This document shows, one piece after another, positions 1,117-35,698 of a stretch of DNA of 35,838 nucleotides. The stretch covers positions 1 to 35,838 of the forward strand of contig JAZQGX010000297.1 in assembly GCA_045540275.1 (NCBI GenBank), given 5' to 3'. Source of the DNA: Kiritimatiellia bacterium. Its GTDB lineage: Bacteria; Verrucomicrobiota; Kiritimatiellia; RFP12; UBA1067. Below the pieces are notes generated by a model. That model saw only the letters and a program-made list of their open reading frames with translations. It was not told where the DNA came from and did not search any database. Each line of letters begins with the position of its first letter. Positions within the stretch are counted from its first letter, which is position 1. The position numbers and the translations under genes are program-made.

Positions 1117-1117
1117 A

Positions 1118-3240: not shown

Positions 3241-3248
3241 GTTTTCAG

Positions 3249-5302: not shown

Positions 5303-5325
5303 TATCAGGAGTTTTCGAGAGGAGC

Positions 5326-18404: not shown

Positions 18405-18480
18405 CTTTAAATGAGAGAGTCGCGGCATCTGATGATGCTGCAAATGTTGTTGGGTTAGGTAGAGCAATAAGGAGTTGGCA

Positions 18481-20268: not shown

Positions 20269-20280
20269 AAGTTTTTTCAA

Positions 20281-21801
20281 ATGAAGATCGTTTGTCCAAA
20301 TTGTGGAAAAAAAGTCGAGCACGGAAGGTTCTGCGAAAAATGCGGAAATCCTTTTGCCGCCGAATCGGATACTGGAAATGACCGTTCTTCGGAATGCCGG
20401 AGCTCTTTTGGCGAGGAGCCTACCCGCGGCGGCAGCGTCAATTCGGGCCAATCGGATTTTTCGCAGATGCCGATTTTGCATCAAGGTGATTGTTTTTCAA
20501 ATGTGCATGAGGGTTTGAAAAAGTCCCAGTCGGCCGGTGGAAATATCGCATTTCCGCAGACGGAAAACGCCACCTCGCTGTTTTTTTCCGATCAAAGCGG
20601 TCCTGAGTTGATGGTGGATCAGCTCTGCGTACAATTTGAGAATCTTTCCGGCATCGTGCGCTTCCTGTTCAATCCCGGGAATGCGCGAGACGGGCTGGAG
20701 AACATCGTGTTCAAATTTGAAAATCAGCTGACCGGGGAGTCTGTCTCGTCGCGCATGCTGCCGTTTCTCAATCGTTCGTGGGAGTTTTCTCTGCCGTTTC
20801 CCGCACAACGCGCCGGAGCAACGGTGTGGTCGGTTACCGGATTGTATGAGATTTCCGGCGTAAGGCACCAGATTGTGGGCGATATGCAGATGGTGGTTAT
20901 TCAACCTCGCGAAGCGCAGACCATCGCCGACAATCTTTGCATCAACATCAGCAACAACATCAACAACGGAAACGCCTCGGACGTCCATGTTTCGCAACGC
21001 GCGCTTGAGGATTTGACCAAGTTGGCCTCCGCGGAAAATCCTTTTGACGAACTTCGCCGCATCATATCAGGCAGGACTCGCTCATGGTGCGGATTGCCGC
21101 TGATCGACTCGAATACTTCCGGTCAAATGCCGCCGATGCCGCCACGGGCAAAAACGGAACGCATAACCCTGGATTTCGGCACTCATCGAGTCACTTTTCT
21201 TGGGGGGCGCACCATCCGCTTTGGACGAAACAGGGATGTAAACGACATTTCGCTGCGACCGGCGGCCTCCGCCACAGAAGATCAGAAGCGTCCGTATTGC
21301 ATGATTAGCCGCGCCCATTGCCACTTCGAACATCAGGGGCAGTCAGTTGTCATTTGCGACGGTCAGCGTGATGAGCGACAGGTGCTGGTGGCGTCAAGCG
21401 GCGGCACATTCTGGAATGGTGTCCGCATTGACGGTTCGATAAGGCTCAACGCGGGGGATCGGGGCGTGGTTTCATTTGCCGGCAGTTATAACGGCGCGAT
21501 CTCGCTTGACGTAAAGGTATGCAAATCGGCGGGGGATTGCAGTTCCTGTCCTCACGCGGGCAGACAATGGTGCGGAGACGGATTGCGCTCATCGCTCATG
21601 CTTACCCGCAGAGACGGCATACCGGAGAAATTCATTGCGGTCTGGAGCTGCTTCCGGTTGGAAGAGGCCGACCCGTCGTTTAACGGGGTTTTGATTTTCC
21701 GAAAAGACGGAGCCTTCGCCTGGCGGAAGGGGCGCAAGTGCGGATGGATTATTCCCGGGACATCGCAACAGACGGATTTTGGAACGGTAACTGTTAACTG
21801 A
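20281..21801 (+). CDS. Zinc-ribbon plus FHA-domain protein
   Basis: The N-terminus has CPNCGKKVEHGRFCEKCG. The FHA-like core is ITLDFGTHRVTFLGGRTIRFGRNRDVNDISL...MISRAHCHFEHQG..VVICDGQ...SSGGTFWNGVRIDG..RLNAGDRGVVSF, matching the G-R...SR.H......D.GS.NGT.vNG pattern. The middle ~250 aa and the Cys-rich C-terminus are unassigned. Confidence 0.55.
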   Translation: MKIVCPNCGKKVEHGRFCEKCGNPFAAESDTGNDRSSECRSSFGEEPTRGGSVNSGQSDFSQMPILHQGDCFSNVHEGLKKSQSAGGNIAFPQTENATSLFFSDQSGPELMVDQLCVQFENLSGIVRFLFNPGNARDGLENIVFKFENQLTGESVSSRMLPFLNRSWEFSLPFPAQRAGATVWSVTGLYEISGVRHQIVGDMQMVVIQPREAQTIADNLCINISNNINNGNASDVHVSQRALEDLTKLASAENPFDELRRIISGRTRSWCGLPLIDSNTSGQMPPMPPRAKTERITLDFGTHRVTFLGGRTIRFGRNRDVNDISLRPAASATEDQKRPYCMISRAHCHFEHQGQSVVICDGQRDERQVLVASSGGTFWNGVRIDGSIRLNAGDRGVVSFAGSYNGAISLDVKVCKSAGDCSSCPHAGRQWCGDGLRSSLMLTRRDGIPEKFIAVWSCFRLEEADPSFNGVLIFRKDGAFAWRKGRKCGWIIPGTSQQTDFGTVTVN

Positions 21802-21811
21802 GGAGGTAGAA

Positions 21812-22393
21812 ATGGGATTCCTGTTTTTTAAAAGCAAGCGTGAAAAAGAGCGTGCCGAACGCCGCGAACGCCGTCATGCGCTTCGCAAGGCCGAGAGTGC
21901 GGTCGATGAAGTGGTCTCGCGCATCAAAAGGATGGAAAAGGATGCCGACGCCGAATGGGAACGCGCCCGCGAAGCGACTAAAGAAGGCAAGCAGGCCGCG
22001 GCTCAGCGTGCTCTGACCAGTTATCGTTCGGCACAAGTGCTGGTTACCAAACTCGAGCAGAAAAAATGGGTCTTTAAGCAGGTTCTTATGAAACTTGAAA
22101 CCGCTGGAACCGACGCCGAGTTCGCCAAAGCGCTTGCGGCGGTCAACAGGGTTACCGATATCAATGTCGAGATGGTCGAAGACGTGTTTGACGAAGCCGG
22201 AGATCTTCTCGCCGAATCCGGCGACGTCGACAAGTTCTGGGCGCAGATGTACGGCAAGGAGGTCGAGGGTTCGAAAGTAGCGCTTCAAGACCATATTCCA
22301 TCAATGGAAGATTTGGAAAGGCATCTTCAGGAGGAAGTTGCAGGCAAAATTGCAAGCGGCATTTCACCGGAAGAGCTTGAGAAAGAGATTTAG
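21812..22393 (+). CDS. ESCRT-III (Snf7/CHMP/Vps2-like) family protein
   Basis: The product is 193 aa. It begins MGFLFF and has a basic N-terminal half (KSKREKERAERRERRHALRK) and an acidic C-terminal half. EATKEGKQAAAQRALTSYRSAQVLVTKLEQKK is colinear with the Vps2/CHMP2 alpha2 region (KMAKQGQMDAVRIMAKDLVRTRRYV). VNRVTDINVEMVEDVFDE...DLL matches the alpha4/alpha5 region. The C-terminal EDLERHLQEE is MIM1-like. GGAGG lies upstream of the ATG. Confidence 0.6.
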   Translation: MGFLFFKSKREKERAERRERRHALRKAESAVDEVVSRIKRMEKDADAEWERAREATKEGKQAAAQRALTSYRSAQVLVTKLEQKKWVFKQVLMKLETAGTDAEFAKALAAVNRVTDINVEMVEDVFDEAGDLLAESGDVDKFWAQMYGKEVEGSKVALQDHIPSMEDLERHLQEEVAGKIASGISPEELEKEI

Positions 22394-22467
22394 TTCATAA
22401 TCACTGCTGGTTCCGGCGTGAAAGCAGCTTGTGATGAGTTGTTATTTGATGATGCAAGAGGTGGATC

Positions 22468-23577
22468 ATGCAATCGATAGGCGATAAGAAGAACGATCGA
22501 ATGTCTGCTTGCCAGACGGCGATGAAGGCTCGTGATTACGCCGCTGCCGCCAAGGCTGCGGCAGATGTGGCTGATTGCGCTGAAATTCTCGCCTCTCGTA
22601 CGACCGGTGTCGTGGCCAAGGCGTATGCCCGGGAAATGGAATCATGGCGGTCGCTGGCGAACAGGCTTGAAGCGAGAAAAGCCTGCTCCGCACCTCGCGA
22701 TGACGCTCGCCCACAGGCGGCGCAGGTTATTGCAGATGGCGATGAATGGCTTGTCGGCGAGAAACCGGATGTGACCTTCGATGACATCGCGGGGATGGAA
22801 GAGGCAAAGCGCATTATCGACGAGATGGTGATCTACCCCATGAAGTCGCCGGATAAGGCTCGCGCTTTGGGGCTTAACCCCGGCGGCGGCGTTTTGCTCT
22901 TCGGCCCTCCCGGAACCGGCAAAACCATGCTCGGGAAAGCGATAGCAGGGGCTCTCAACGCACCGTTCTACTATGCTTCCGGTGCAGATTTGCGCTCTAA
23001 ATGGTACGGTGAATCAGAGCAGCGCCTGTCAAAACTTCTCAATGCCGCAAAGTCACAGCCGGTGGCGGTGTTGTTTCTTGATGAAATCGAATCGCTGCTT
23101 CCGAAACGCACCGAATCATCGCACGCTGCCGACAATCGGGTGGTGACGCAATTTCTTTCCGATATCGGTGGGTTTGATGGATCGGAGAATCTGCTTCTGA
23201 TTCTCGGAGCGACCAATAAGCCGTGGAATATCGACGAAGCGGTTTTTCGTACCGGGCGTTTCGACGAAAAGATTTATGTCGCACCGCCGGATGCCGCCGC
23301 CAGACTCAAAATTCTGGAGTTGAACATCGCCGGGGCGCAGCTCGGTCCGGAAGTCGATTTAAACGAAATCGCCAAAGCGATGGAAGGGGCGTCGGGCTCG
23401 GATGTGTCGGCAGTAGTTTCCGCGGCCAAGCGTTCGGCATTGGCTCGCGCAATCCGGGAGGACAGCGATCCGGTTATCTGCAAAGAGGATTTGCAAGCGG
23501 CGCGTGAGCGTATTCCGCTTAGCATCACCGGTGAAATACTTGAGCCTTATGAGCGGTTTATGAAGGAGCGGCTTTGA
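22468..23577 (+). CDS. Vps4-like meiotic-clade AAA+ ATPase with an MIT-like N-terminal three-helix region
   Basis: Walker A is VLLFGPPGTGKTMLGKAIA. The diagnostic SKWYGESE(Q) corresponds to the Vps4/katanin/spastin SKW(V/L)GESEK. Walker B is VLFLDEIESL. LGATNKPWNIDEAVFRTGRFDEKIYVAPPD and ...MEGASGSDVSAVV are present. The C-terminal helix EDLQAARERIPLSITGEILEPYERFMKE resembles the Vps4 C-terminus. The N-terminus has the MIT-like helices AAAAKAAADVADCAEILASR...AKAYAREMESWRSLANRLE. Confidence 0.8.
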   Translation: MQSIGDKKNDRMSACQTAMKARDYAAAAKAAADVADCAEILASRTTGVVAKAYAREMESWRSLANRLEARKACSAPRDDARPQAAQVIADGDEWLVGEKPDVTFDDIAGMEEAKRIIDEMVIYPMKSPDKARALGLNPGGGVLLFGPPGTGKTMLGKAIAGALNAPFYYASGADLRSKWYGESEQRLSKLLNAAKSQPVAVLFLDEIESLLPKRTESSHAADNRVVTQFLSDIGGFDGSENLLLILGATNKPWNIDEAVFRTGRFDEKIYVAPPDAAARLKILELNIAGAQLGPEVDLNEIAKAMEGASGSDVSAVVSAAKRSALARAIREDSDPVICKEDLQAARERIPLSITGEILEPYERFMKERL

Positions 23578-24482
23578 AACCTGTATGTTGCAAGTGCGGA
23601 AAAACCCTGCCCAATCGCTGGGCGGTTGGCAAGCGGGTGGTGGTCGACGGAGTTGAACAGTGCTATTGCCATTTGCATGCGGTCGATAAGCGAGGCGAAC
23701 AGATGGCAACCGGCAGAGCAATGAAGAGAGAGGAGGTTGTCGCGATGAGTGACAATGAACAAAATGACAAATCCGGCACTCGGGAGGAAGAATTGACGAA
23801 AAACGCCTCAGGGGAGCTTGTTAAAAAGGCCTGGGGCGAGTGCTCGTCGCTTGTTTCAAAACTGGGCGGCGGTATTAAGGTTGTATGGGCAAAAATACAC
23901 CCCGACCGTTCGCCGGAGGCGATGCTGTCGAGCCTCGACGGCGATTTGGCGGAAAACCGGCGCAGGCTGGCAGAAATCAAGCCCGAGCTGGATCGAGCCT
24001 ATCGCGATATCGTCGCCGGGAAAAAGGATTACCTGTCGGCGCCACCGGCGCGTCAGCGTATTCTTAAAATCGAGTTGCAGAGCCTGTTGGCACGCTATAA
24101 ATCACTCGAACGTGAGTTCGGGATTCTTTGCGAAAACGAACGATCCATCGAGATGGTCCGCGGCAGATTTCTTGAGGTGCTTGCGCACGGTATGCGCGGC
24201 AAACTCAACGTCGATACCGTTGACCGCCTGACCGACAGCATCGAGGAGCAGGTCGATGAGGCCGAGGATGTGCAGGACGCGCTGTCAGATCTCGAGCGCG
24301 CCGGCAAAAGAAGCGAACGAGATACTGGAGATTTTGATTCGGAACTCGCCGATTTTGACGGCGAACTGGGTTTGGTCGAAGATGTTAAAAAGGAGGAGAA
24401 AAATGAAGAAAAGAACAATATTGATATCGTCACTGATAAGCGCGGTACTGCTCTCGAGGAATCTGACGGCGGGATTGCGTGA
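23574..24482 (+). CDS. Zinc-ribbon plus ESCRT-III/PspA-superfamily-like coiled-coil protein with an acidic MIM-like tail
   Basis: It has a TTG start that overlaps the Vps4-like stop by 4 nt (TTGA). The N-terminus has CCKCGK...CYCHLH. The central helices are LSSLDGDLAENRRRLAEIKPELDRAYRDIVAGKKDYLSAPPARQRILKIELQSLLARYKSLEREFGIL. The C-terminus has DEAEDVQDALSDLERAGKR, which resembles the Vps2 MIM1 DLEERLKNLRR, then DFDSELADFDGELGLVEDV. The fold assignment is tentative. Confidence 0.4.
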   Translation: MKPVCCKCGKTLPNRWAVGKRVVVDGVEQCYCHLHAVDKRGEQMATGRAMKREEVVAMSDNEQNDKSGTREEELTKNASGELVKKAWGECSSLVSKLGGGIKVVWAKIHPDRSPEAMLSSLDGDLAENRRRLAEIKPELDRAYRDIVAGKKDYLSAPPARQRILKIELQSLLARYKSLEREFGILCENERSIEMVRGRFLEVLAHGMRGKLNVDTVDRLTDSIEEQVDEAEDVQDALSDLERAGKRSERDTGDFDSELADFDGELGLVEDVKKEEKNEEKNNIDIVTDKRGTALEESDGGIA

Positions 24483-25623
24483 AATTTCGTATGCGGTTGA
24501 GGATGCCGCATATCAGGCGGCAAGTAGACTTGCCGAGGATCCACGCGCCGAAAAAGAGATAAAGCGAATTGCATTTGTCAAACTTTGGACGGGCGATTCT
24601 ACCAACTCGATTCCCAACAGCGACGGATTGGTAGCGGTGTTTGAATCGGCATTGGGAGCGGTACCTGCACCCTTCAGCATCGTGCTGCACTCGAATCGCG
24701 ACGACCAGTGGTCGCTTATCGACAGCGTTTTCGATCAGATCGCCGATTTCGACGATTATAATCCGGCGACCTCTCCGCAGCTGAGCAAATTCGAACTTTG
24801 CGACACGCTGCTGCTTGCCAAGATGATCAACGGCATCGACGGCGGCGACAAAGGGGTCAGCTCCGTGCGTATTGCGCTGAAGGCGATACAGGTCAAAACC
24901 GCCCGTCAGATCTGGAGCGCGGTGGTGGAAGGCTCCTACGACGCGCGCACTCAGCCCGACAACGAGAAGCTCAGCTATTTCTCGCGCAAGGCGCTTGAGC
25001 AGGCGGCTGCCGATGCGGTCGAAAAACTTCCGCGCTCGCTCGACGGCTACGGTGTGCTGATCACGCCGATTCAAGGCGCTGGCGGCAAAGCATTGACCCA
25101 GATGTTCATGAATGCCCTGACCGCCGCGGGCCGCCAGGACAAGGTTCGCCTTTACGATTTGCCCAACGGTAACGCCTCCGACCGTATGCTCGGACGCTAC
25201 CTGTGGGAGCGTACTGGTTCGGGCAAAGCGCTTGCTCCGTCGGCGATCAAGCAGATTAAGAGCAAGACCGGTGCCGAAGGGAAGCTCGCGATCTTGACCG
25301 GTATGGTCGTTACCGGTCGCATCTATCCCGACACCTGGGTCGATCCCACGGGCGAGCCGGTTAACACCCTCACCGGTTCCTATTCCGACGCAAGAAAAAA
25401 TCCGACCAGCTTTGAGATTATTGCGGACTTGAAGTTCCGTGATGTCAACGATGGCTTCCGTGTCGTGGCGGCCGTCTCTGCCAATGGTGTTTACAAGCGC
25501 GATATCGGCGGCGATGTCACCGAGCAGCTCAGAAGTTTTGTGACCGTTCGCAATATCGCGGTCGTTGCTGTAATCCTGATATTGATCTGGTTCGTATGCA
25601 AATATGCATTGCGCGTCCGTTAA
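24403..25623 (+). CDS. Exported protein with a signal peptide and a C-terminal TM anchor (function unknown)
   Basis: AGGAGG lies 8 nt upstream of the ATG at 24403. The signal peptide is MKKRTILISSLISAVLLSRNLTA. The C-terminal hydrophobic helix is IAVVAVILILIWFV. The ORF-track start at 24256 is an RBS-less upstream extension that overlaps the previous gene. The - strand ORF 24430-25731 is rejected as a shadow. Confidence 0.5.
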   Translation: MKKRTILISSLISAVLLSRNLTAGLREISYAVEDAAYQAASRLAEDPRAEKEIKRIAFVKLWTGDSTNSIPNSDGLVAVFESALGAVPAPFSIVLHSNRDDQWSLIDSVFDQIADFDDYNPATSPQLSKFELCDTLLLAKMINGIDGGDKGVSSVRIALKAIQVKTARQIWSAVVEGSYDARTQPDNEKLSYFSRKALEQAAADAVEKLPRSLDGYGVLITPIQGAGGKALTQMFMNALTAAGRQDKVRLYDLPNGNASDRMLGRYLWERTGSGKALAPSAIKQIKSKTGAEGKLAILTGMVVTGRIYPDTWVDPTGEPVNTLTGSYSDARKNPTSFEIIADLKFRDVNDGFRVVAAVSANGVYKRDIGGDVTEQLRSFVTVRNIAVVAVILILIWFVCKYALRVR

Positions 25624-25651
25624 CGTTGCATGAAGTTGAATGGAGAACATC

Positions 25652-26413
25652 ATGAAAAAAAGTATTTTTGCGATTTTTGCCGCTGCTCTGATCTCGGGAT
25701 GCGTAACCCATCTGGCCGATCCGGAGGTCAAGACCTACGTCAACGGTACAGTGCAGCCGCTTCGTGTGCTGGTATCGATTGATGGCGGCAAAGACCAATC
25801 CAGCGCGTCGTATCAGCTCAGCGGCTACCTTCAGTCGCATCTTGAAAGCGCATTGGCCGCTGCGGGCTATCGCGTAGTCTATGAAGGGAACCATGAAATC
25901 CTCGTTTCGACTTGCGGTCAGGTGACGTGTCAGGAAAGAAATAAGCGCGGAACCCGTTCGGTGTACTATGGCGATGCGGATGTCCAGGTGACCCGTGCGG
26001 CATTTGAAAACACCATGCGCAACGAGACGATGCGCGATATTGTCGCCCGTCAGCGTTTCGATGTTCAGGGCGGACAGGCGCGTACGCCGACCGAGGCAAT
26101 CAAATCGGTGGCGGATACGCTCGCTCCTGAGCTTTCGAAGTGGACGGCCGCCTCGGTGACCAAAGTTGCCTCGAAGCTGGAATGCTGCCAGGTCACTATC
26201 AGCAACGCATGGACATATCGCGGCGAAGAGGACTACCCATCCCGTTTTACCGCTACGGTTAACCGGATGCGCGGCATCTACAGCTGCCGCATTCTCTCCA
26301 CTGACAACGTAAACCGTTCGTTTCGCGCTGAGATCATCTACGACCGTGATATGTATCCCGACGGCATCGTAAACGGTCTTATCGCCACCAGCGGCCTCAA
26401 TCTCTACCGATAA
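25652..26413 (+). CDS. Predicted lipoprotein (function unknown)
   Basis: MKKSIFAIFAAALISGC has a lipobox (LISGC). No recognisable domain is present. Confidence 0.5.
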   Translation: MKKSIFAIFAAALISGCVTHLADPEVKTYVNGTVQPLRVLVSIDGGKDQSSASYQLSGYLQSHLESALAAAGYRVVYEGNHEILVSTCGQVTCQERNKRGTRSVYYGDADVQVTRAAFENTMRNETMRDIVARQRFDVQGGQARTPTEAIKSVADTLAPELSKWTAASVTKVASKLECCQVTISNAWTYRGEEDYPSRFTATVNRMRGIYSCRILSTDNVNRSFRAEIIYDRDMYPDGIVNGLIATSGLNLYR

Positions 26414-26442
26414 GACAATTGGAAATCTGAAAGGATCTCGAA

Positions 26443-27111
26443 ATGAAAAAGATGATATGTGTAATCTTTGGAATCGTTATTTGCGGGGTGGCGTTCGGCC
26501 AGGGTGCCGGCCGGGGCGTCTACAAACCGGGACAAACCCATCCTCATCGCGGCGGTGCGGTACACCGCTCCGATTTTCATCGTGCTCCGCACAAGGTCGA
26601 CCGCAAGGTTTACGATCGCACGGCCGGGTACGAAGGACATGTGGCATATTCCCCGTTCGCTTTGAGTCTGGGCAGTTTGTCGATGCCTTGCGGCCGTCAC
26701 TGGGCAATCGGAGGCGCCCGTCTGAATCTGGGGCTGCCGGGGTGGACCTCGGTTTATGACAGTGTATACGGATTTGATATCGGCCTTTCCGGTGAGTCCA
26801 CCATCGAGACCGGCGGTATTGCCGTAAATGCGTTCAACAATACCACGCGCGATTTCTACGGAGTGGCGGTTGCGGGATTGTGGAACCGCACTTACGGAAG
26901 AGACACCCAGGCTCTTCAAATCGCCTCGTTGTGCAATTTCGCCGAAAATATCAGCGGCGTGCAGATCGGACTCTTCAACCGTGCCCGGGTTTTGCACGGA
27001 TTGCAGATAGGCCTTTGCAATTCCGCACCTTCGGGCAGCGGGTTGCAGATAGGCGTTTGGAATGCAAATTCTAACGGTGTGGGCAGCCCGGTTATTGGCA
27101 TCGTTTTTTAA
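26443..27111 (+). CDS. Secreted repeat protein with G(L/V)QIG(L/V)(F/C/W)N motifs
   Basis: The signal peptide is MKKMICVIFGIVICGVAFGQ. GVQIGLFN, GLQIGLCN and GLQIGVWN recur at about 16-18-aa spacing near the C-terminus. AAGGA precedes the ATG. Confidence 0.45.
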   Translation: MKKMICVIFGIVICGVAFGQGAGRGVYKPGQTHPHRGGAVHRSDFHRAPHKVDRKVYDRTAGYEGHVAYSPFALSLGSLSMPCGRHWAIGGARLNLGLPGWTSVYDSVYGFDIGLSGESTIETGGIAVNAFNNTTRDFYGVAVAGLWNRTYGRDTQALQIASLCNFAENISGVQIGLFNRARVLHGLQIGLCNSAPSGSGLQIGVWNANSNGVGSPVIGIVF

Positions 27112-27137
27112 GTTCGATAAAGAAAGGCCGGTAAACT

Positions 27138-28178
27138 ATGAGCAGAATGGATGCCATTCGCAAGCAATACGAACAAAATTCCGATGGCGATGGACTTCAA
27201 CGTCCGAATTATCGCGTTCACCCCGCACGCTCACGCAATCTAGTATTCAAGTTCTTTTGGCTGATGCTGATTTTGTCGGTGCTGGGAGGCTTTTTCAGCG
27301 CAAAGAATAAAATAATTCCTTTTTTTAAGGGGGCGTTCGGTATCGGATCTCAGCCCACTCCTCATAGCCAGAGTATGGGAAAGGACCTTGGCACTCATCA
27401 GGGCGCCAGGGAAGTTGAGGTTTCAAAGCAGGCGCTCTCTCAGTACTTGCAGCCGACGAAAGCCGAGATGGAGCAACTTTTCGAATATGTGCGCAATTCG
27501 TCGCATGTTAAAGAAAACTTGCTTTATGCCAAAACCATGCAGGAGTGCCGCTTTTTGTATTTGCCGGACAATGAAACCGTAAATGCGCTCGCCGGTTTGC
27601 ATAAATTGGATAAGGACAGCGAGAAGTTGACGCGTGTTGTCTGTTTTCTGGGCGGTGCAGCCCGTTTTGCCCGTGTCGCCGCACTTGCCGGTGCGGCTGA
27701 GCAATGTGGCGACAAGGGGGCGGGTGCGCGTTTTTTGCGGGCCTGCACGGCGGCAGACTGTGGAAAGATGGATGCCGACGCTGCACTCCGGATTGTGAAT
27801 GAAGCTTGTTTGGGGGGCGTGCTTAACAATCAGATTGCGTTGACGAAGGCAAAATCCATTTCGGCCGGCCTGATGCTCGGCATTATCGCTCATGAGTGCG
27901 GTCACCAGAGTCTTGGTCATGTGCTCAAGACCGGTGAAACCGTCAATCTTGATATTTCGCGCAATCAGGAGCGGGAGGCGGATTCGTTTGCCTCTTCAGT
28001 AATATCTTCCAGTCCGTTTGGTGAATACATTCTGGCGGGTACGCTCTTTTGGTACTATGCGCTTGCCAATCAGCAGCGTGATTCGAACGAAACGACACAT
28101 CCGTTGGCAAAAGAACGCTTTGAAAATTATGTCCGGTCCAACAAGGCGTTGGCGGCATCACTTGGCATCAGACTGTGA
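27138..28178 (+). CDS. Membrane-anchored HExxH zinc-metallopeptidase-like protein, paralog A
   Basis: The N-terminal TM segment is LVFKFFWLMLILSVLGGFF. The motif IAHECGHQSLGHV is HExxH plus a downstream H. The C-terminus has QEREADSFASSVI...SPFGEYILAGTLFWYYALANQ...TTHPLAKERFENYVRSN. Confidence 0.5.
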   Translation: MSRMDAIRKQYEQNSDGDGLQRPNYRVHPARSRNLVFKFFWLMLILSVLGGFFSAKNKIIPFFKGAFGIGSQPTPHSQSMGKDLGTHQGAREVEVSKQALSQYLQPTKAEMEQLFEYVRNSSHVKENLLYAKTMQECRFLYLPDNETVNALAGLHKLDKDSEKLTRVVCFLGGAARFARVAALAGAAEQCGDKGAGARFLRACTAADCGKMDADAALRIVNEACLGGVLNNQIALTKAKSISAGLMLGIIAHECGHQSLGHVLKTGETVNLDISRNQEREADSFASSVISSSPFGEYILAGTLFWYYALANQQRDSNETTHPLAKERFENYVRSNKALAASLGIRL

Positions 28179-28193
28179 AACGAGGTGGCAGCA

Positions 28194-29054
28194 ATGGGAA
28201 GATTGGAAGATTTTAGAGCGCGCACGCGCATGCGCGCTTTGTCGCTATCGGATGGTGGATCCGGCGGGCTGTTCAACGGCCAAGCCGCCGGCATGAAAGA
28301 AGATTCCGAGCAGGAATTGATTGCGTATCTAAATCCCGACGGAACCGAAATCAGCCAATGGTGGTCGATGCTGGTGCAGTCGCCCTATCTGCACACCAAT
28401 CTTTCCTATGCCAATTCGCTTCAGCGCACAAAATTCTTCTATGACGTCGACAATAATCAGATAAATGCGTTCGCATGCTGTGAAGATGAGCAGGCATCCG
28501 GTTTTCGCATCTGTTTTCTTGGAGGGCTGATGCGTTTTTCCCGTCTTGCATCACTGGCGGCGGCTGCGGATATGTGCGGCCGCCCCGGCACTGCCGGCCG
28601 ATTCGCCCAGTCATTCGACCGATACGGCGGACTTTCTCAGAACGAAGCGCTGGAGGAGATGGAGAATCTTGGCTTGGCTTCGGTTTATCATCTGCCCGGG
28701 GTGAAAAGTAAGGCGTTGGCGATTTCATCGGGGATGATAATTTCGATTCTCGCCCATGAGATGGGCCATATCTGCTTGGGTCACGTTCAAGGTCCGACCT
28801 ATTACAATTCTAACCATGAAATTTCACGGAATCGTGAACGCGAGGCTGATTCGTTTGCCTCGACAATAACTGCCGCAAGCCCTTTTGGTGAGTATATGCT
28901 GGTCGGGATTTTGTTTTGGGCGTATGCAATGGCGCAGCAGGAAAAGGGAATGACGGCGACGACCCATCCGCTATCGATTGAACGTTTTAACAACTTTGTT
29001 AGATCAAATTCATCACTTGCCTCGACTTTTGGTTTGGTTGAATTTAACGATTGA
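28194..29054 (+). CDS. HExxH zinc-metallopeptidase-like protein, paralog B (tandem duplicate of 27138-28178)
   Basis: LAHEMGHICLGHV...REREADSFASTITAASPFGEYMLVGILFWAYAMAQQ...TTHPLSIERFNNFVRSN is colinear with paralog A. It has no N-terminal TM segment. The ATG at 28194 follows GAGGTGG. Confidence 0.5.
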   Translation: MGRLEDFRARTRMRALSLSDGGSGGLFNGQAAGMKEDSEQELIAYLNPDGTEISQWWSMLVQSPYLHTNLSYANSLQRTKFFYDVDNNQINAFACCEDEQASGFRICFLGGLMRFSRLASLAAAADMCGRPGTAGRFAQSFDRYGGLSQNEALEEMENLGLASVYHLPGVKSKALAISSGMIISILAHEMGHICLGHVQGPTYYNSNHEISRNREREADSFASTITAASPFGEYMLVGILFWAYAMAQQEKGMTATTHPLSIERFNNFVRSNSSLASTFGLVEFND

Positions 29055-29071
29055 CCGCTAGATATCCTACC

Positions 29072-32000
29072 ATGAACAAGAATTCAATTAATAACGATAT
29101 TACGATAACTGAGGAGGGTGAGCATCCTCGTGAAGGGGATGGTAATCGTCCTCGCGCTTGGGAGGGCGAGCATCCTCGTGCTTGGGAGGGCGAGCGTCCC
29201 CGCGAGCCGTTATCGATGAACAATGCGGTAACGTTGCGTCCTCAAGCGGGCGCATCGCTCGGTCGTATCGACCAATATGAGCTTATCCGCGAGCTTGGCG
29301 GAGGTGGATTCGGTTGCGTGTATCTCGCACGCGACACGGTTGCCGGGATTGAGGTCGCGGTAAAGGGCTTGCCTCCGCTCGTTCGGCTCAATAAGGAAGA
29401 GCTTGAAAATGTCCGAAAGAATTTCGCTTTAGTTTCGCGACTTCATCATCCGAATATTGCGGCGGCGCTTCATCTGCAGAAGGTTGAAAAGGCTTTTTAC
29501 GACGACAAGGCTGATGCTGAAAAACTGCGCGTCTTTAATGGTGACACTCTCGTTGTAATGCAGTACGCGCCAGGCGTCACGCTCTCGCAATGGCGTAAGC
29601 AGTTCCCTGACGGCAAGGTGCCGTTGGATAAGGCGCTCGAAATTGTGCGGCAGATTGCGTCCGCGCTCGATTACGCGCATAAAGAGAAGATTCTTCATCG
29701 TGACATCAAGCCAGCGAACGTGATGATTGAAACATTACCTGACGGCTCGATTGCGGCACACGTTCTTGACTTTGGGCTTGCCGCCGAAATTCGCTCCTCA
29801 ATGAGCCGCGTCTCGCGTGAAGTAACTGATACGTCGGGTACGCGACCTTATATGGCGCCGGAACAGTGGGGCGGACGGAAACAAGGCAAGGAAACTGATT
29901 TATATTCTCTTGCAGTTCTTTTTTATGAACTCGTTACAGGAGAGGTGCCGTTTGCATCTGTATTTGATACGGGTGATTCAGTACTCATGATGAATGTGAT
30001 TGAGACTAAGAATCCAGAATTTTCATCTGAACTGCCAAAGCCCATCCGCCTTGCACTCACCAAGGCCTTGTCCAAAAAGCGCGAAGACCGCTTCGGTTCA
30101 TGCTCAGAGTTCGTTGACGCGCTACAGGGCGGGCGTATATCAGGAGGGCGAGCGTCCTCGCGAGCCACCGTTATCCTCACCGCCCTTGCATCCCTTTGCC
30201 TCGCTGTCGGCGGCGTTTGGTATTGGCAAGAAGCGAAGGCGAAAGAGGAGGCTCGAATCGTCGCCGAGCAAAAAGCCGAGGCGGAACGAAAGGCTGCCGA
30301 AGAAGCGCGGCGTATAGCCGAGGAGAAAGCCAAGAAAGAGAAGGCTGAAACGGAGCGAAAGCAAAAAGAGGAAGCGGCACGGATAGCCGCCGAGAAGGCA
30401 AAGGCTGAAGCCGAAGAACGAGCTCGAAAGACAGAAGCGGTACGCATCGCGGCCGAGAAGGATGCGGAACGCAAAGCTGAACTCGAAGTGTTTCGACTTT
30501 CTTCTAAAGCACAAAGTGCACATGATCTTATCGATGGCGAGTCGTCTGAGATAAAGGAGTTTTTCGCAAAGGAAATCCGTGCCTTTGAGAATGATCGCCG
30601 AGCAGGTGATGACGCCAAGCAAAATTCAAAGTATGTAGTTGCAACGAATTTCTATGCGCAAGCGTTGATGGCTGCGACTGCGCTTAAGGTGTCGGTAGCG
30701 AATTATCGCGAGTGTAAGGAGTTGTTGCCGAAAATTGAACGTGCCAAGGAACGTGCCGATGAAGTGAATGCGGCAGGATCGTTGCCAAGCGGGTACAGGG
30801 CGGCGCAAAATGCCCATAGCGCAGCTTTAGATGCATTAAAACAAAAGCGTTTTGATGAAAGCAAGGCCAAGATGCAAGAGGCGGAGAAGCTTTTTGTATC
30901 TTTGCGAAACGATGTCATCAATGCAGTTCTTGATTTGGCGGAAGGGCACAAGACGGCAGCGCGTTGGGAGCTTTGCAAACAAGAGGCGGATAAGGTGCTT
31001 AAGTGGGAAAGCGGGAATGCAAAAGCGATTGCGCTTAAAGAGGTTGCGCAAAAAAGTCTCATGCCGTCGCTGAAAATTGTTGCGCAGATTGACGGAGAGG
31101 AGATTGACGGAGTTACGATAAAAATTGGCGACAAAGAATATGCAACTCCCTATGTAATGCAAAATTTGAAGAAGGGTGATCTTATCGGTCCTTGTGATGT
31201 TGCATATATGCGCAATGGCAAGAACTATGTCGGTACTTTCTCACAGGTAAGTGTAGATTGGCTTGGTGCTAAAGTGCTTGCAGTTGCGCTTAAGGAGCAT
31301 GCTGGCCTGCAGGCCGGAGATGTTAAGGCCATTACACTTCCTGGCGGTGTTGCAATGGTGATGGTTTATGTTGCTCCCGGATCGTTTATGATGGGAAGCC
31401 CGGAAACGGAAGAGGGGCGATACAATAATGAGACGCAGCATCGCGTTACATTAACTGAAGGATACTGGATTGGCAAGTATCCGGTAACTCAAGCGCAATG
31501 GTCGGCACTCGTAAGTGCGAATAATGTTTCATTCGATAATGGTGCTCCGGTTGCATGGTTTAGTTCTAAACGTGGAGGTGCTGATGATTTTCCGATGGAG
31601 AATATCAGCTGGGATGATTGCTACAGATTGATAAAAGCTTTGAACGCCAATGAATCGACACATAGAAGATGGATGCTGCCGACTGAGGCGCAATGGGAAT
31701 TTGCGGCAAGGGGAGGCACGAAGTCTAAAGGATATAAGTATAGTGGAAGCGATATTTTGAGTGAGGTTGGTTGGTATGACAAGAATTCTGGACATAGGAC
31801 CCATTCTGTTTCTGCGAAAAATAGAGGTAATGAGTTGGGCATTGTCGGTATGAGCGGCAATGTGTGGGAGCTGTGCCAGGACTGGTATGGTAACGATTAT
31901 TATGCAACAAGTCCACACCTGAATCCTATAGGCCCAGCTTCGGGTGATAAACGTGTCTTGCGCGGGGGTAGCTGGATGCACGATGCTCGGGATTGTCGCT

Positions 32001-32638
32001 CCGCCTCACGTGTCAATCTATCTCCCTCTCGCCGCGTCTACGGCACTGGTGTCCGCCTCGTTTGTTCGGACACGACTGTGACACAACAAGACAAAGCTCA
32101 TTCTGTGCCGGCTCAAGAAAAGAAGTCGGTCGCTGGATTGTCTCAAAAAGCCCGAAAATTTGTCGGTACATGGATTTGCCAATCAGAAGTTACTCAAAAA
32201 ACGGAGCATAACACAAAATGGGATGGCAATATCATGAAGTGCTTGCCGATTTCAACATCCATAGAGTTGGTTTGCAGAGAGGATGGGACGGCGACCCTTA
32301 AAGAAGGGGCCAATAAGGTCTTTGGCGTATCTTCCGGTACATGGAGATACAAGCATGGTATGTTTTTGATGGATATGAAAATGTCGGATGGCATTTCGTA
32401 TGAAATTAGTGCGGCAGTAAAATGGATTGGCGATGATAGTTTTTCGTTGCGCTTCGATAATGGCGAGTATGCTGCTTTGATCAAGAGTCGATGTGGGAAT
32501 ATTCACGATTTGAATGCCGTTCTCTCAATTTATGCCGATGAAAATATGGAGGTGTCGATTTCTACAAAAACACCAAATTTCAGAAGTGGCAAGGCAATAT
32601 GCAAGCCGTATGTGTTTAAAAAGATTTCAAATCGATAA
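29072..32638 (+). CDS. Kinase 2: a Ser/Thr kinase with a TM helix, a K/E/A-rich coiled coil, an FGE-sulfatase (C-type-lectin-fold) domain and a ~200-aa C-terminal extension
   Basis: The N-terminus carries a WEGEHPRA peptide repeat. The kinase motifs are GGGGFGCVYLARD, HRDIKPANVMI, DFGLA and GTRPYMAPEQ. The TM segment is VILTALASLCLAVGGVWYW. The coiled coil is about 100 aa of EEARRIAEEKAKAE-type repeats. The FGE domain reads VYVAPGSFMMGSP...YWIGKYPVTQAQW...RWMLPTEAQWEFAARGG...VWELCQDWY...RVLRGGSW...CRSASR. The ATG at 29072 is chosen because the ORF-track TTG at 29051 overlaps the upstream stop. Confidence 0.85.
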   Translation: MNKNSINNDITITEEGEHPREGDGNRPRAWEGEHPRAWEGERPREPLSMNNAVTLRPQAGASLGRIDQYELIRELGGGGFGCVYLARDTVAGIEVAVKGLPPLVRLNKEELENVRKNFALVSRLHHPNIAAALHLQKVEKAFYDDKADAEKLRVFNGDTLVVMQYAPGVTLSQWRKQFPDGKVPLDKALEIVRQIASALDYAHKEKILHRDIKPANVMIETLPDGSIAAHVLDFGLAAEIRSSMSRVSREVTDTSGTRPYMAPEQWGGRKQGKETDLYSLAVLFYELVTGEVPFASVFDTGDSVLMMNVIETKNPEFSSELPKPIRLALTKALSKKREDRFGSCSEFVDALQGGRISGGRASSRATVILTALASLCLAVGGVWYWQEAKAKEEARIVAEQKAEAERKAAEEARRIAEEKAKKEKAETERKQKEEAARIAAEKAKAEAEERARKTEAVRIAAEKDAERKAELEVFRLSSKAQSAHDLIDGESSEIKEFFAKEIRAFENDRRAGDDAKQNSKYVVATNFYAQALMAATALKVSVANYRECKELLPKIERAKERADEVNAAGSLPSGYRAAQNAHSAALDALKQKRFDESKAKMQEAEKLFVSLRNDVINAVLDLAEGHKTAARWELCKQEADKVLKWESGNAKAIALKEVAQKSLMPSLKIVAQIDGEEIDGVTIKIGDKEYATPYVMQNLKKGDLIGPCDVAYMRNGKNYVGTFSQVSVDWLGAKVLAVALKEHAGLQAGDVKAITLPGGVAMVMVYVAPGSFMMGSPETEEGRYNNETQHRVTLTEGYWIGKYPVTQAQWSALVSANNVSFDNGAPVAWFSSKRGGADDFPMENISWDDCYRLIKALNANESTHRRWMLPTEAQWEFAARGGTKSKGYKYSGSDILSEVGWYDKNSGHRTHSVSAKNRGNELGIVGMSGNVWELCQDWYGNDYYATSPHLNPIGPASGDKRVLRGGSWMHDARDCRSASRVNLSPSRRVYGTGVRLVCSDTTVTQQDKAHSVPAQEKKSVAGLSQKARKFVGTWICQSEVTQKTEHNTKWDGNIMKCLPISTSIELVCREDGTATLKEGANKVFGVSSGTWRYKHGMFLMDMKMSDGISYEISAAVKWIGDDSFSLRFDNGEYAALIKSRCGNIHDLNAVLSIYADENMEVSISTKTPNFRSGKAICKPYVFKKISNR
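29114..29209. repeat. Tandem copies of the GC-rich ~24-27-bp element GAGGG(C/T)GAGC(A/G)TCC(T/C)CG(T/C)G, encoding the WEGEHPRA/WEGERPRE peptide repeats
   Basis: Copies lie at 29114-29132 and 29162-29185 (GAGGGCGAGCATCCTCGTGCTTGG) and at 29186-29209 (GAGGGCGAGCGTCCCCGCGAGCCG). A degenerate copy lies at 29141-29161. Confidence 0.6.
29267..30232. repeat. A ~970-bp segment duplicated at 33487-34470 (kinase plus TM halves of kinases 2 and 3), about 90% nucleotide identity
   Basis: Long collinear runs are identical. One example is GAGCTTATCCGCGAGCTTGGCGGAGG, which is present in both copies. Another is ...GAAAAACTGCGCGTCTTTAATGGTGACACTCT(C/T)GTTGTAATGCAGTACGCGCC... Divergence rises abruptly after the TM helix. 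Confidence 0.7.
30143..30166. repeat. Copy of the same element (GGAGGGCGAGCGTCCTCGCGAGCC) inside kinase 2, read in a different frame (GGRASSRAT)
   Basis: It is near-identical to 29186-29209 but sits in the juxtamembrane region and is translated in another frame. Confidence 0.6.
30300..30465. repeat. Imperfect ~63-69-bp tandem repeat x3 in the kinase 2 coiled-coil region
   Basis: GAAGCGCGGCGTATAGCCGAGGAGAAAGCC (30302), GAAGCGGCACGGATAGCCGCCGAGAAGGCA (30371) and GAAGCGGTACGCATCGCGGCCGAGAAGGAT (30434) encode EEARRIAEEKA, EEAARIAAEKA and EAVRIAAEKD. Confidence 0.5.
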
Positions 32639-33409: not shown

Positions 33410-35497
33410 ATGGTTCCCTTTATGAGTGAGAATTCGTTGAGCGATGCTGTGACGATGTGCCTGGGCGCACCGGATGCCGTTTGTTCCATCGACCAGTATG
33501 AGCTTATCCGCGAGCTTGGCGGAGGCGGGTTCGGCTGCGTATATCTCGCGCACGATACGGTCGCCGGGATTGATGTCGCGGTAAAGGGCTTACCTCCGCT
33601 CGTTCGCCTAAATAAAGAAGAGCTGGAGAACGTCCGAAAGAATTTCGCTTTAGTCTCGCGTCTTCATCATCCGAATATCGCCGCTGCGCTTCATCTGCAG
33701 AAGGTTGAAAAGGCTTTTTACAATGATAAAACCGATGCCGAAAAACTGCGCGTCTTTAATGGTGACACTCTTGTTGTAATGCAGTACGCGCCGGGAGTCA
33801 CACTCTCGCAATGGCGTAAGCAATTCCCCGATTGTAAAGTTCCGTTAGATAAGGCTTTAGAAATCACGCGGCAAATTGCATCCGCGCTCGATTACGCGCA
33901 TAAGGAGCGTATTCTCCATCGCGATATAAAGCCGGCGAATGTTATGATAGAGACTGGGGCTGACGGCTCGCTCACGGCTCGCGTTCTCGACTTCGGCCTC
34001 GCCGCTGAAATCCGCTCGTCGATGAGCCGTGTGTCGCAGAGTGTTACCGATACGTCGGGTACGCGCCCCTATATGGCGCCGGAACAGTGGGGTGGACGGA
34101 AACAAGGCAAGGAGACTGATTTATATTCTCTTGCGGTTCTTTTTTATGAACTTGTTTCAGGGGAAGTTCCGTTCGCTTCGGTATTTGACACGGGTGATCC
34201 CGTATTGATGATGAACGTAATTGAGACGAAGAATCCAGAACTTTCATCTGAACTTTCAAAACCCATTCGCCGCGCACTTGCCAAGGCCTTGGCGAAAAAG
34301 CGCGAAGATCGTTTCGCTTCATGTTCCGAGTTCGTTGATGCGTTACAAAGTGGGCGTATGTCGGGAGGGCGAGCGTCCTCGCTGGGAGGGCGAGCGTCCC
34401 CGCGAGCCGCCGCTATCCTTACCGCCGTTGCTGCCCTCGGTCTCGCTGTCGGCATCTGGTATTGGCAACAAGGATCTTCTGATGTGAATGGGAATGCGGC
34501 TCGCGAGGACGCTCGCAGGCCTCTGGCGACTTCGCTACGCGAAGCGGACTCCGTCCGGGCTATACCTCCCGTAAATGTGGCTCGCGAGTACGCTCGCCCT
34601 CCCAAAAACATCGTCCCCGCGAGCCGTGAAGATAAGGAATATACCGGTCCAAAGGATGGTGAGTGTAAAACTTTTACGCTCCCTGGCGATGTTATAATGG
34701 AGATGGTATATGTTGGCCCTGGTGAATTCATGATGGGTAGTGAAGATGGTGATGACGACGAAAAGCCAGTTCATTCCGTGCGAATCTCTCAAGGCTATTG
34801 GATTGGTAAATACCCGGTTACACAAAAGCAATGGAAAGCGTTGGTTGAAGCTAGCGATATAACCTTTGATAATGGTCAGCCTGTAGCGTACTTCAGCTCT
34901 CACGGCGGCGGTAGTAAAACTGTGGCAGGCATTGACACGTCGGACTTTCCGATGGAATGCGTTAGTTGGGATGACTGCAATAAGTTGGTAGAGGTGCTTA
35001 ACAGGAAGGAAAACTCTTCAAGAAGATGGATGATTCCGACAGAAGCGCAATGGGAGTTTGCAGCGCGAGGTGGTAGCAAATCTAAGGGTTATAAATATTC
35101 TGGTGGCGATAATATGAGCGCTTTGGGTTGGTATTATGAGAATTCAGGAGTAGACAGGCTTGCAGATTTGCAATGGAGTGTTGATAAATTAAGAAGCAAT
35201 AAATGTCGACCGCATCGAGTGGATGAAAAAGATGTAGGCAATGAGCTTGGCATAGTCGGGATGAGTGGTAATGTTTGGGAGTGGTGTCAAGATTGGTATG
35301 GGAAAGATTATTATGCAAATAGTTCAAGGTTAGATCCTAAGGGACCGGCATCGGGCGATATCCGTGTCTTGCGCGGGGGCAGCTGGTACGACCTCGCCAG
35401 GCTCTGCCGCTCCGCCGACCGCAGCGGGTCCTGGCCCGGCGACCGCATCAGCAACTGTGGCTTCCGCCTCTGTTGCTCCGCAGGACCGCGCGATTAA
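33410..35497 (+). CDS. Kinase 3: a Ser/Thr kinase with a TM helix and a C-terminal FGE-sulfatase/C-type-lectin-fold domain whose last ~40 codons look like a DGR variable region
   Basis: The kinase and TM halves are about 90% nucleotide-identical to kinase 2. The FGE domain reads MVYVGPGEFMMGS...YWIGKYPVTQKQW...RWMIPTEAQWEFAARGG...VWEWCQDWY...RVLRGGSWYDLARLCRSADRSGSWPGDRISNCGFRLCCS. The protein ends about 10 aa after GFRL. Confidence 0.85.
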   Translation: MVPFMSENSLSDAVTMCLGAPDAVCSIDQYELIRELGGGGFGCVYLAHDTVAGIDVAVKGLPPLVRLNKEELENVRKNFALVSRLHHPNIAAALHLQKVEKAFYNDKTDAEKLRVFNGDTLVVMQYAPGVTLSQWRKQFPDCKVPLDKALEITRQIASALDYAHKERILHRDIKPANVMIETGADGSLTARVLDFGLAAEIRSSMSRVSQSVTDTSGTRPYMAPEQWGGRKQGKETDLYSLAVLFYELVSGEVPFASVFDTGDPVLMMNVIETKNPELSSELSKPIRRALAKALAKKREDRFASCSEFVDALQSGRMSGGRASSLGGRASPRAAAILTAVAALGLAVGIWYWQQGSSDVNGNAAREDARRPLATSLREADSVRAIPPVNVAREYARPPKNIVPASREDKEYTGPKDGECKTFTLPGDVIMEMVYVGPGEFMMGSEDGDDDEKPVHSVRISQGYWIGKYPVTQKQWKALVEASDITFDNGQPVAYFSSHGGGSKTVAGIDTSDFPMECVSWDDCNKLVEVLNRKENSSRRWMIPTEAQWEFAARGGSKSKGYKYSGGDNMSALGWYYENSGVDRLADLQWSVDKLRSNKCRPHRVDEKDVGNELGIVGMSGNVWEWCQDWYGKDYYANSSRLDPKGPASGDIRVLRGGSWYDLARLCRSADRSGSWPGDRISNCGFRLCCSAGPRD
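34364..34411. repeat. Two tandem copies of the element in kinase 3 (GGGAGGGCGAGCGTCCTCGCT GGGAGGGCGAGCGTCCCCGCGAGCCGCC)
   Basis: It encodes SGGRASSLGGRASPRAA. This is the same position as the single copy in kinase 2, but duplicated. Confidence 0.6.
34497..34630. repeat. Inverted and partial copies of the element in the kinase 3 linker
   Basis: 34499-34516 GCTCGCGAGGACGCTCGC is the reverse complement of GCGAGCGTCCTCGCGAGC. 34575-34601 GTGGCTCGCGAGTACGCTCGCCCTCCC is the reverse complement of GGGAGGGCGAGCGTACTCGCGAGCCAC, with 1 mismatch to the consensus. 34609-34628 holds the direct partial copy CGTCCCCGCGAGCCG. The encoded peptides are AREDARRP, AREYARPP and PASRED. Confidence 0.55.
35370..35497 (+). 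other. Candidate diversity-generating-retroelement variable region (VR) at the C-terminus of kinase 3
   Basis: The scaffold is RVLRGGSW-xx-A-x-CRSA-x-R-xxxx-P-x-x-R-xxx-GFRL. The scaffold residues are shared with kinase 2, while the intervening positions differ at 16 of 17 positions that are not conserved. In kinase 3 those positions are almost all NNC codons (tac, gac, ctc, ctc, gac, agc, tcc, ggc, gac, atc, agc, aac, ttc, tgc). The GC content rises sharply from the preceding FGE-domain sequence. No template repeat or RT is visible inside the window. Confidence 0.3.
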
Positions 35498-35603
35498 GGG
35501 GCGGAGCACAGTCGCGAGCGGCGGAGAGGCGCCCCCAAGCGGAGCGAGGGGGTGAGCGGCACCATGCTCCCTAACTCCTTGCCTATAACTTGGTTTTTAT
35601 TTC

Positions 35604-35698
35604 TTTGCTTTCGCTTCTTGGAGTTTAGGAGATTGGGAGTTTAGGAACTTTACCCCTCCCGATCTCCAAAACTCCAAATCTCCAAGAAGCGAAAGCAA
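35604..35698. repeat. 19-bp perfect inverted repeat (TTGCTTTCGCTTCTTGGAG / CTCCAAGAAGCGAAAGCAA) flanking a 57-nt partially self-complementary core; a long hairpin/cruciform candidate
   Basis: Arm 35604-35622 is the exact reverse complement of 35680-35698. The inner sequence has GGAGTTTAGGA/GGGAGTTTAGG direct repeats that face CTCCAAAACTCC/CTCCCGATCTCC. Confidence 0.6.

Follow-up and report, generated by a model that had tools for sequence, protein, structure and literature searches.

Variable regions (VRs) with the fold of the formylglycine-generating enzyme (FGE) make up the largest class of targets of diversity-generating retroelements (DGRs), and one described architecture (b12) fuses such a region to a kinase (Wu et al. 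2018, PMC5758913). In the same classification, FGE-sulfatase C-type lectin (CLec) VRs form target category b, and HRDC-containing DGRs form Architecture C, typified by Treponema. DGR targets of cyanobacteria combine an N-terminal Ser/Thr kinase with a C-terminal CLec domain and are for the most part predicted to lie in the cytosol (Vallota-Eastman et al. 2020, PMC7517822), targets annotated as PknD or Pkn1 have been reported from surveys of metagenome-assembled genomes (MAGs) (PMC11661182), and Pkinase-containing putative antigen sensors are among the DGR-diversified conflict-system proteins of multicellular bacteria (Dore et al. 2024, PMC10907252; Kaur et al. 2020, PMC7159879). A search of the literature library used here found no paper linking DGRs with Kiritimatiellae. 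Here we describe a Ser/Thr kinase gene, kinase 3, at 33410-35497 on the forward strand of contig JAZQGX010000297.1 from the Kiritimatiellia bacterium assembly GCA_045540275.1. The stretch of DNA that was analysed (the window, 35,838 nucleotides) is the whole contig, which ends 341 bp past the kinase 3 stop codon. We conclude, with a probability of about 0.87, that positions 35348-35489 (+ strand) are a DGR variable region on this receptor-type kinase gene.

The first-pass annotation of the window had proposed that the C-terminus of kinase 3 is a DGR variable region, in part because it shares a scaffold with the C-terminus of kinase 2 (29051-32638). This scaffold is present in both proteins in the form RVLRGGSW-xxx-AR-x-CRSA-x-R-xxxx-P-xx-R-xxxx-G(F/V)RL, with a spacing slightly different from the one first given, and reads RVLRGGSW-YDL-AR-L-CRSA-D-R-SGSW-PG-D-R-ISNC-GFRLCCSAGPRD up to the stop codon of kinase 3. 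None of the 15 variable residues inside the scaffold is shared by the two kinases, which also differ at the F/V of GFRL, bearing out the divergence that had been described at the non-conserved positions. Likewise, the near-uniform NNC codon usage was found again in kinase 3 (12 of 15 variable codons), and the remaining two NGG codons (GGG at 35426, TGG at 35432) and one TGT codon (35456) are explained by AGG and TGT codons in the template introduced below. The abrupt shift to A-poor, GC-rich sequence is also real, with 12.5% A (first put at about 11%) and 38% C in 35370-35497 compared with 28.6% A and 14.9% C in the 730 nt of FGE-domain sequence upstream (34640-35369), and the protein stops 8 residues past GFRL, close to the 10 or so originally counted.

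A template repeat (TR) for this region was predicted from a DNA alignment of kinase 3 with four homologues that share only 54-59% overall identity at the protein level. In this five-gene alignment, the nucleotides of the scaffold are near-perfectly kept, synonymous sites included, and the conservation continues for about 70-95 nt past the stop codon. Dozens of kinase 3 homologues terminate in this scaffold and are hypervariable at the matching positions. The predicted template takes the form AAC AAC AAC GCC AGG AAC TGC CGC TCC GCC AAC CGC AAC AGG AAC AGG, and for the kinase 3 VR reads GGCAGCTGGAACAACAACGCCAGGAACTGCCGCTCCGCCAACCGCAACAGGAACAGGCCCGGCAACCGCAACAACAACTGTGGCTTCCGCCTCTGTTGCTCCGCAGCACCGC. 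Scanning JGI metagenomes with the AAC-intact pattern led to contig L037, which holds exactly the predicted TR sequence, translating to RGGSWNNNARNCRSANRNRNRPGNRNNNYGFRLACSA, located 3' of a reverse transcriptase (RT) fragment (RVT_1, with YMDD and IGSLTSQ motifs) and 5' of an HRDC-domain gene. A search with the L037 RT returned many relatives with open reading frame (ORF) tails that read through similar TRs, and the tail of one of these, P0125, carries TGT codons and fits kinase 3. Its contig, L038, is a related metagenome contig with the order avd - RT - TR - HRDC, in which the TR occupies 1826-1967, the avd gene matches phrog_3206 "Avd protein of DGR" (E = 3.4e-10), the RT matches phrog_1423 (E = 7e-70) and the HRDC gene matches PF00570 (E = 1.5e-11).

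Alignment of window positions 35348-35489 with L038 positions 1826-1967, a template from another sample, was gap-free over 142 nt with 88% identity and 17 mismatches. Sixteen of these mismatches fall on the 32 adenines of the L038 TR, and one falls on the remaining 110 positions (Fisher p = 1.7e-11). The adenine substitutions (A>T 7, A>G 6, A>C 3) span 35361-35451, kinase 3 has NGG codons opposite AGG in the template, and its TGT codon lies opposite TGT. As the degenerate 39-nt VR pattern occurred once in the window and in none of 100 shuffles, and given the p-value from a real TR, the pattern in kinase 3 is not due to chance. The sole non-adenine mismatch is a C>G at 35484, where the window has G and the TRs have C. 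Cognate TR/VR pairs of the related loci L039, L044 and L045 show this C>G change as well, shortly before TR and VR cease to be homologous, and we read it as a putative boundary marker of the IMH/IMH* type (IMH, initiation of mutagenic homing). The invariant GC-rich 3' end of the VR (35459-35489, + strand), which is unchanged across homologous VRs, would correspond to such an IMH. With the mutable codons of the L038 TR (12 AAC, 3 AGG, 1 AGC and 1 GAT), about 5.6e16 protein variants are theoretically available. The comparison supported the first-pass proposal that a template with adenines at the variable positions of kinase 3 would be found next to an RT and an Avd homologue, here in a close relative and with an HRDC gene beside them. 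In addition, it moved the start of the VR, originally placed at 35370-35497, by 22 nt upstream, as the TR-homologous stretch runs from 35348 to 35489.

The same signature was seen across homologues. In ten pairwise comparisons among five homologous genes, per-site differences at codon positions 1, 2 and 3 were 0.34, 0.22 and 0.11 in the VR, compared with 0.30, 0.26 and 0.50 in the upstream FGE domain and 0.26, 0.19 and 0.47 in the kinase domain. In 25 family members with a strict scaffold, the 15-residue repertoire of NNC codons covers 271 of 275 residues at AAC-type positions, AGG-type positions hold R, W or G, and the AGC position holds S, C or G. These observations bear directly on the null explanation raised at the outset, which is that the conserved C-terminus of an FGE domain has simply diverged between paralogues with no retroelement involved. 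The RGGS...R...GFR residues are generally conserved in FGE domains, and kinase 2 has the same protein scaffold yet no VR, both of which would fit that explanation. Ordinary divergence, however, cannot account for third codon positions that are near-invariant while positions 1 and 2 vary, the reverse of the flanking domain, nor does it fit variable residues confined to the NNC repertoire, 16 of 17 differences from an independent TR on adenines, or scaffold and 3' flank DNA conserved among such divergent proteins. We consider the chance that paralogue divergence alone produced this region to be negligible. Kinase 2 itself was tried as a second or fossil VR and rejected, having 31 mismatches to the TR at the 110 non-adenine positions and no local rise in its DNA identity to kinase 3; judged by its sequence, it is an ordinary paralogue.

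A further explanation is that the GC-rich patch was donated by a different VR-bearing paralogue, through gene conversion or recombination, and not written by retrohoming at this site. Relatives have many paralogous VR-bearing kinases (69 of 120 kinase homologues have an FGE-type tail), and the shared 68-nt element 3' of the VR (described below) could travel with it. The donor in such an exchange would itself be a DGR variable region, however, leaving the sequence DGR-derived in any case; moreover, the residues at the variable positions of kinase 3 are unique among all homologues seen, and its differences from the TR are purely at adenines, the boundary marker apart. We therefore regard this origin as very improbable.

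Cassettes of the same lineage in related contigs differ in layout. In contrast to the L038 order, L039 has a kinase-FGE gene with a VR, followed by HRDC and then the RT with its TR, and its cognate TR/VR pair shows 16 adenine mismatches and 1 non-adenine mismatch. In L030 and L042-L045, the RT start codon lies about 100 nt past the kinase stop codon, and HRDC genes are present in L037, L039 and L042-L045. Contigs L044 and L045 come from different samples and encode an identical RT protein with the same TR, yet their VRs are unlike, with 22 of 35 and 18 of 35 adenines changed, which indicates that this DGR lineage is active in nature. The RT contigs of the lineage are mostly 1-6 kb long, and the target contigs of both the window and L028 stop just past the VR, a pattern that fits assembly breaking at repeats and would leave a VR orphaned in a MAG. 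The flank of kinase 3 past the conserved 3' element resembles two flanks in L029 that contain no RT, for which reason kinase 3 looks like a remote target served in trans.

This non-coding element, GGGGCGGAGCACAGTCGCGAGCGGCGGAGAGGCGCCCCCAAGCGGAGCGAGGGGGTGAGCGG, comprises 68 nt directly 3' of the stop codon (35498-35565, + strand). It follows every VR of the kinase 3 sub-family, whether or not an RT lies downstream, and no TR carries it. The element is kept behind the VR in L028, L030 and L042-L045, and in two copies in L029; in L030 and L042-L045 it separates the VR from the start of the RT. RNAalifold predicted a 17-bp stem between the invariant end of the VR (GCTTCC-GCCTC-GCTCCGC) and the distal portion of the element (GCGGAGC-GAGG-GGTGAGC); one copy of the element has 48 nt inserted, and these map to the loop of this predicted stem. 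No terminator-like or promoter-like sites were found at the element. It is a plausible but unproven candidate for a target-recognition element, as for the hairpin in the DGR of Bordetella phage BPP-1. Further downstream, about 110 nt past the stop codon of kinase 3, lies an inverted repeat whose two arms of 42 nt (35605-35646 and 35657-35698) are 83% complementary and separated by a 10-nt spacer. It is built of GGAGTTTAGG-like units resembling the L029 repeat family D5, with no T-run terminator after it.

The domain organization of kinase 3 places the VR at the end of a receptor-like protein, in agreement with the variable tip on a transmembrane (TM) Ser/Thr kinase that the first-pass annotation had pictured. 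The 695-aa product in the ORF list has a 691-aa counterpart in the protein database (P0001, 100% identical) that uses an alternative start at 33422. A Hanks-type Ser/Thr kinase domain at aa 30-303 (33497-34318, + strand; PF00069, Pkinase, E = 3.6e-42) retains all Hanks motifs in its translation (GGGGFG, VAVK, HRDIKPAN, DFG and APE). A Kyte-Doolittle scan with 19-residue windows predicted a single TM helix, AAAILTAVAALGLAVGIWYW, at aa 333-352 (34406-34465, + strand), which holds all five top hydropathy windows (best mean 1.98) and is the sole strongly hydrophobic stretch, located between the two domains. The FGE-sulfatase-type C-type lectin domain covers aa 431-687 of 695 (34700-35470, + strand; PF03781, E = 1.8e-47), and its sequence matches in the PDB are bacterial FGEs and Treponema denticola TvpA (2y3c, E = 2.3e-20). 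The active-site cysteine pair that marks the GGS(Y/W)xC...C loop of catalytic FGE/SUMF1 proteins is missing: in alignment with Streptomyces FGE (6muj/2q17), the first active-site Cys of LCHDSYC lies opposite a DGR-variable Asp of kinase 3, and the loop is 3 residues shorter. Given this replaced cysteine and shortened loop, the domain is probably a non-catalytic binding module. These predictions support kinase 3 as a single-pass TM Ser/Thr kinase whose FGE-type lectin fold carries the VR at its C-terminus. In the coding linkers of kinases 2 and 3, we also observed a 19-nt GC-rich repeat, GCGAGCGTCC(C/T)CGCGAGCC, in both orientations (29190-29208, 30148-30166 and 34390-34408 on the + strand; 34498-34516 and 34579-34597 on the - strand). 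It encodes, for example, GGRASPRA or AREDAR, has family members in L029 (D8-D10) and the L037 RT ORF, and looks like a small interspersed element tolerated in coding sequence. The other kinase of the window, kinase 1 (14157-17924), has the kinase domain in common with kinase 3 but Sel1 repeats (11 matched stretches) and a right-handed beta-helix in place of FGE, and no VR-like tail.

The mechanism that we propose is as follows. A cassette elsewhere in the genome would supply the machinery and transcribe an A-rich TR encoding ...RGGSWNNNARNCRSANRNRNRPGNRNNNCGFRLCCSA, the RT would copy the TR RNA while misincorporating opposite adenines, and the resulting cDNA would replace the VR, with the invariant GC-rich 3' end, and perhaps the 68-nt element too, guiding homing. 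Codons corresponding to 12 AAC, 3 AGG, 1 AGC and 1 GAT would thereby be recoded on the ligand-binding face of the non-catalytic FGE-type lectin domain. Because the single TM helix comes after a kinase domain that is expected to be cytoplasmic, the FGE domain and its variable tip would face the periplasm or exterior. From that predicted position outside the membrane, the tip would set which ligand switches on the cytoplasmic kinase. We infer that a working cassette is still in this genome and that the 3' element plays a role in homing there.

Several points weigh against this interpretation. No RT, TR or accessory gene of this genome was found. The window, a whole contig, contains no TR or RT, which agrees with the initial placement of TR and RT outside it, and present-day activity in this genome is thus presumed. 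The TR compared with the kinase 3 VR came from another sample and possibly from another species, and only one kinase 3 allele is present in the databases. Among the matches listed, RTs from NCBI sources (e.g., P0137) had no TR tail fitting the kinase 3 VR, and the closest RTs (P0122-P0125) are from ENA, Logan or JGI sources and not from this MAG. P0137 was considered as the cognate RT and rejected because its TR tail would be unlike the kinase 3 VR at several non-adenine positions. The predicted 3' stem showed no compensatory changes or covariation, and its folding energy did not improve on that of shuffled sequence (z = 0.43). Finally, the outward orientation of the tip is a topology prediction, and the gating of kinase activity by ligand binding is likewise a prediction about signalling. 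A single genome-collection scan for the VR/TR pattern returned 27 loci, none of this organism; these belong to different DGRs of Verrucomicrobiales and further groups, with an identity of about 75%. There were no matches to the TR pattern in viral contigs and no Rfam matches on the cassette contigs.

The absence of a cassette is the basis of the main rival explanation, in which DGR writing took place in the past, the cassette has since been lost or inactivated, and the tip is now frozen and evolving normally. No RT or TR is tied to this genome, there is no RT after kinase 3, whose flank is like the non-RT flanks of L029, and the single known allele and the unfitting TR tails of the NCBI-source RTs listed would fit a fossil too. 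Set against this, no decay is visible in the VR: the TR of a relative is matched at 109 of 110 non-adenine positions, the exception being the boundary marker, and the step in codon usage and GC content relative to the remainder of the gene is still intact. Relatives show the lineage to be active, and its RT cassettes, lying on contigs of only a few kilobases, would be expected to drop often from MAG bins, making the absence of a cassette from this MAG weak evidence. We judge a fossil VR to be improbable, and favor the reading of kinase 3 as a current DGR target, written from a cassette outside this contig.

In addition to FGE-type tails, 14 of 120 kinase homologues end in a VR tail of the Lcl_C/DUF1566 type. 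The closest kinase 3 orthologue, P0002 (ENA, 906 aa, 82% identical), has an in-frame second domain past its FGE-type VR that ends in an Lcl_C/DUF1566-type VR-like tail (YWSS…VRPVQ), and similar tails occur in P0024, P0029, P0030 and others. This suggests a second class of TR in kinase-bearing genomes. On L038, a second A-rich repeat lies between avd and RT (623-672; …GNVNNNNATNANRAVP) and matches the 3' end of a truncated upstream ORF (1-52; …GYVSSYYYATTANRAVP) with adenine-only mismatches and one 3-nt indel, and one RT might thus serve two different TRs on this contig.

Upstream of kinases 2 and 3 is a gene island (18475-29054) that is syntenic in L028, L029, L030 and L039, always upstream of VR-bearing kinases. 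It includes genes for zinc-ribbon/Band7 (18475), zinc-ribbon/FHA (20281), Snf7-like (21812), AAA ATPase (22468) and HExxH peptidase-like proteins (27138 and 28185). Orthologues of the two HExxH proteins match Peptidase_U49/Lit, whereas the Snf7-like assignment scored 23.8 bits, under the Pfam threshold, with no PDB relative. The idea that the neighboring AAA and Snf7-like proteins form a Vps4/ESCRT-III pair was not confirmed, as the PDB matches of the AAA protein are generic Cdc48/p97-type. The island may be a downstream module of the kinases. A more elaborate scheme would make the VR kinases the sensor arm of a Kiritimatiellia island (Band7/zinc-ribbon, FHA, Snf7-like, AAA, LpoB-like and Lit/M48-like peptidases), with DGR-retuned sensing of extracellular antigens or ligands, a phospho-signal read by FHA, effectors of a membrane-remodelling or abortive-infection type, homing into many scattered kinase genes steered by pairing of the 68-nt element with the IMH-like end, and possibly two TRs in L038; as a whole, we think this scheme unlikely. 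The contig opens with a run of short ORFs whose N-terminal segments are hydrophobic and look pseudopilin-like; a 929-aa secretin-like ORF (5299-8088) follows, and on the translations this region (12-8088) resembles a type II secretion or pilus cluster.

Overall, these results add a well-supported DGR target for the poorly studied Kiritimatiellia of the PVC superphylum. A lectin tip outside a TM kinase would make a programmable receptor, as opposed to an adhesin or a cytosolic sensor, and the whole kinase arrays of relatives, with VRs of two types (FGE and Lcl_C/DUF1566), suggest DGR-driven tuning of signal inputs on a large scale. Because cassettes of this lineage assemble into very short contigs and the target contigs of the window and L028 break after the VR, MAG surveys may often meet orphan VRs.

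Among described systems, the DGR of Treponema denticola shares the C-terminal VR on a non-catalytic FGE-type C-type lectin fold (TvpA, 2y3c) and the HRDC accessory gene, which is found here in related cassettes. The crystallised TvpA chain, which we take to be that of a lipoprotein, lacks a kinase, whereas the lectin domain of kinase 3 is fused via a TM helix to a Hanks kinase. Cassettes related to kinase 3 also differ from the Treponema system in having the TR within the 3' tail of the RT ORF, and the kinase 3 host is Kiritimatiellia-like, to judge by the source names attached to its homologues. One TR serving several remote targets is a further likeness (PMC5758913). The cyanobacterial kinase-CLec targets (category b12 of PMC5758913) are similar in joining a Hanks kinase to a DGR-diversified CLec/FGE domain and in comprising both DGR-adjacent and remote paralogous targets, but kinase 3 belongs to another phylum, has a single TM helix between its kinase and lectin domains and lies within a conserved Band7/FHA/AAA/peptidase island.

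With the prototype DGR of Bordetella phage BPP-1 (Mtd; avd-TR-RT), the kinase 3 system shares differences between TR and VR that are specific to adenines, an invariant 3' end that is GC-rich and carries markers distinguishing TR from VR, and an Avd homologue, in this case in a related cassette. In contrast, BPP-1 diversifies a phage tail-fibre protein, the lectin fold of which is of the Mtd type, and has its TR between avd and RT. A short, experimentally defined cruciform directly follows the IMH of BPP-1, in place of which kinase 3 has the conserved 68-nt element with an unproven stem. The antigen sensors of conflict systems (PMC10907252, PMC7159879) resemble kinase 3 in their C-terminal FGE/CLec VRs on signalling domains including Pkinase, in having many targets per genome and in the peptidases and ATPases encoded nearby. 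No vWA-MoxR-VMAP or STAND components were seen beside kinase 3, however, whose neighbors are instead Band7/zinc-ribbon, FHA, Snf7-like, AAA and M48/U49-like peptidase genes, and a role in defence would be speculation. In total, kinase plus FGE DGR targets and HRDC-type DGRs are already known, and what is modestly distinctive here is the receptor topology, the 68-nt element, the TR in the tail of the RT ORF and the conserved neighboring island.

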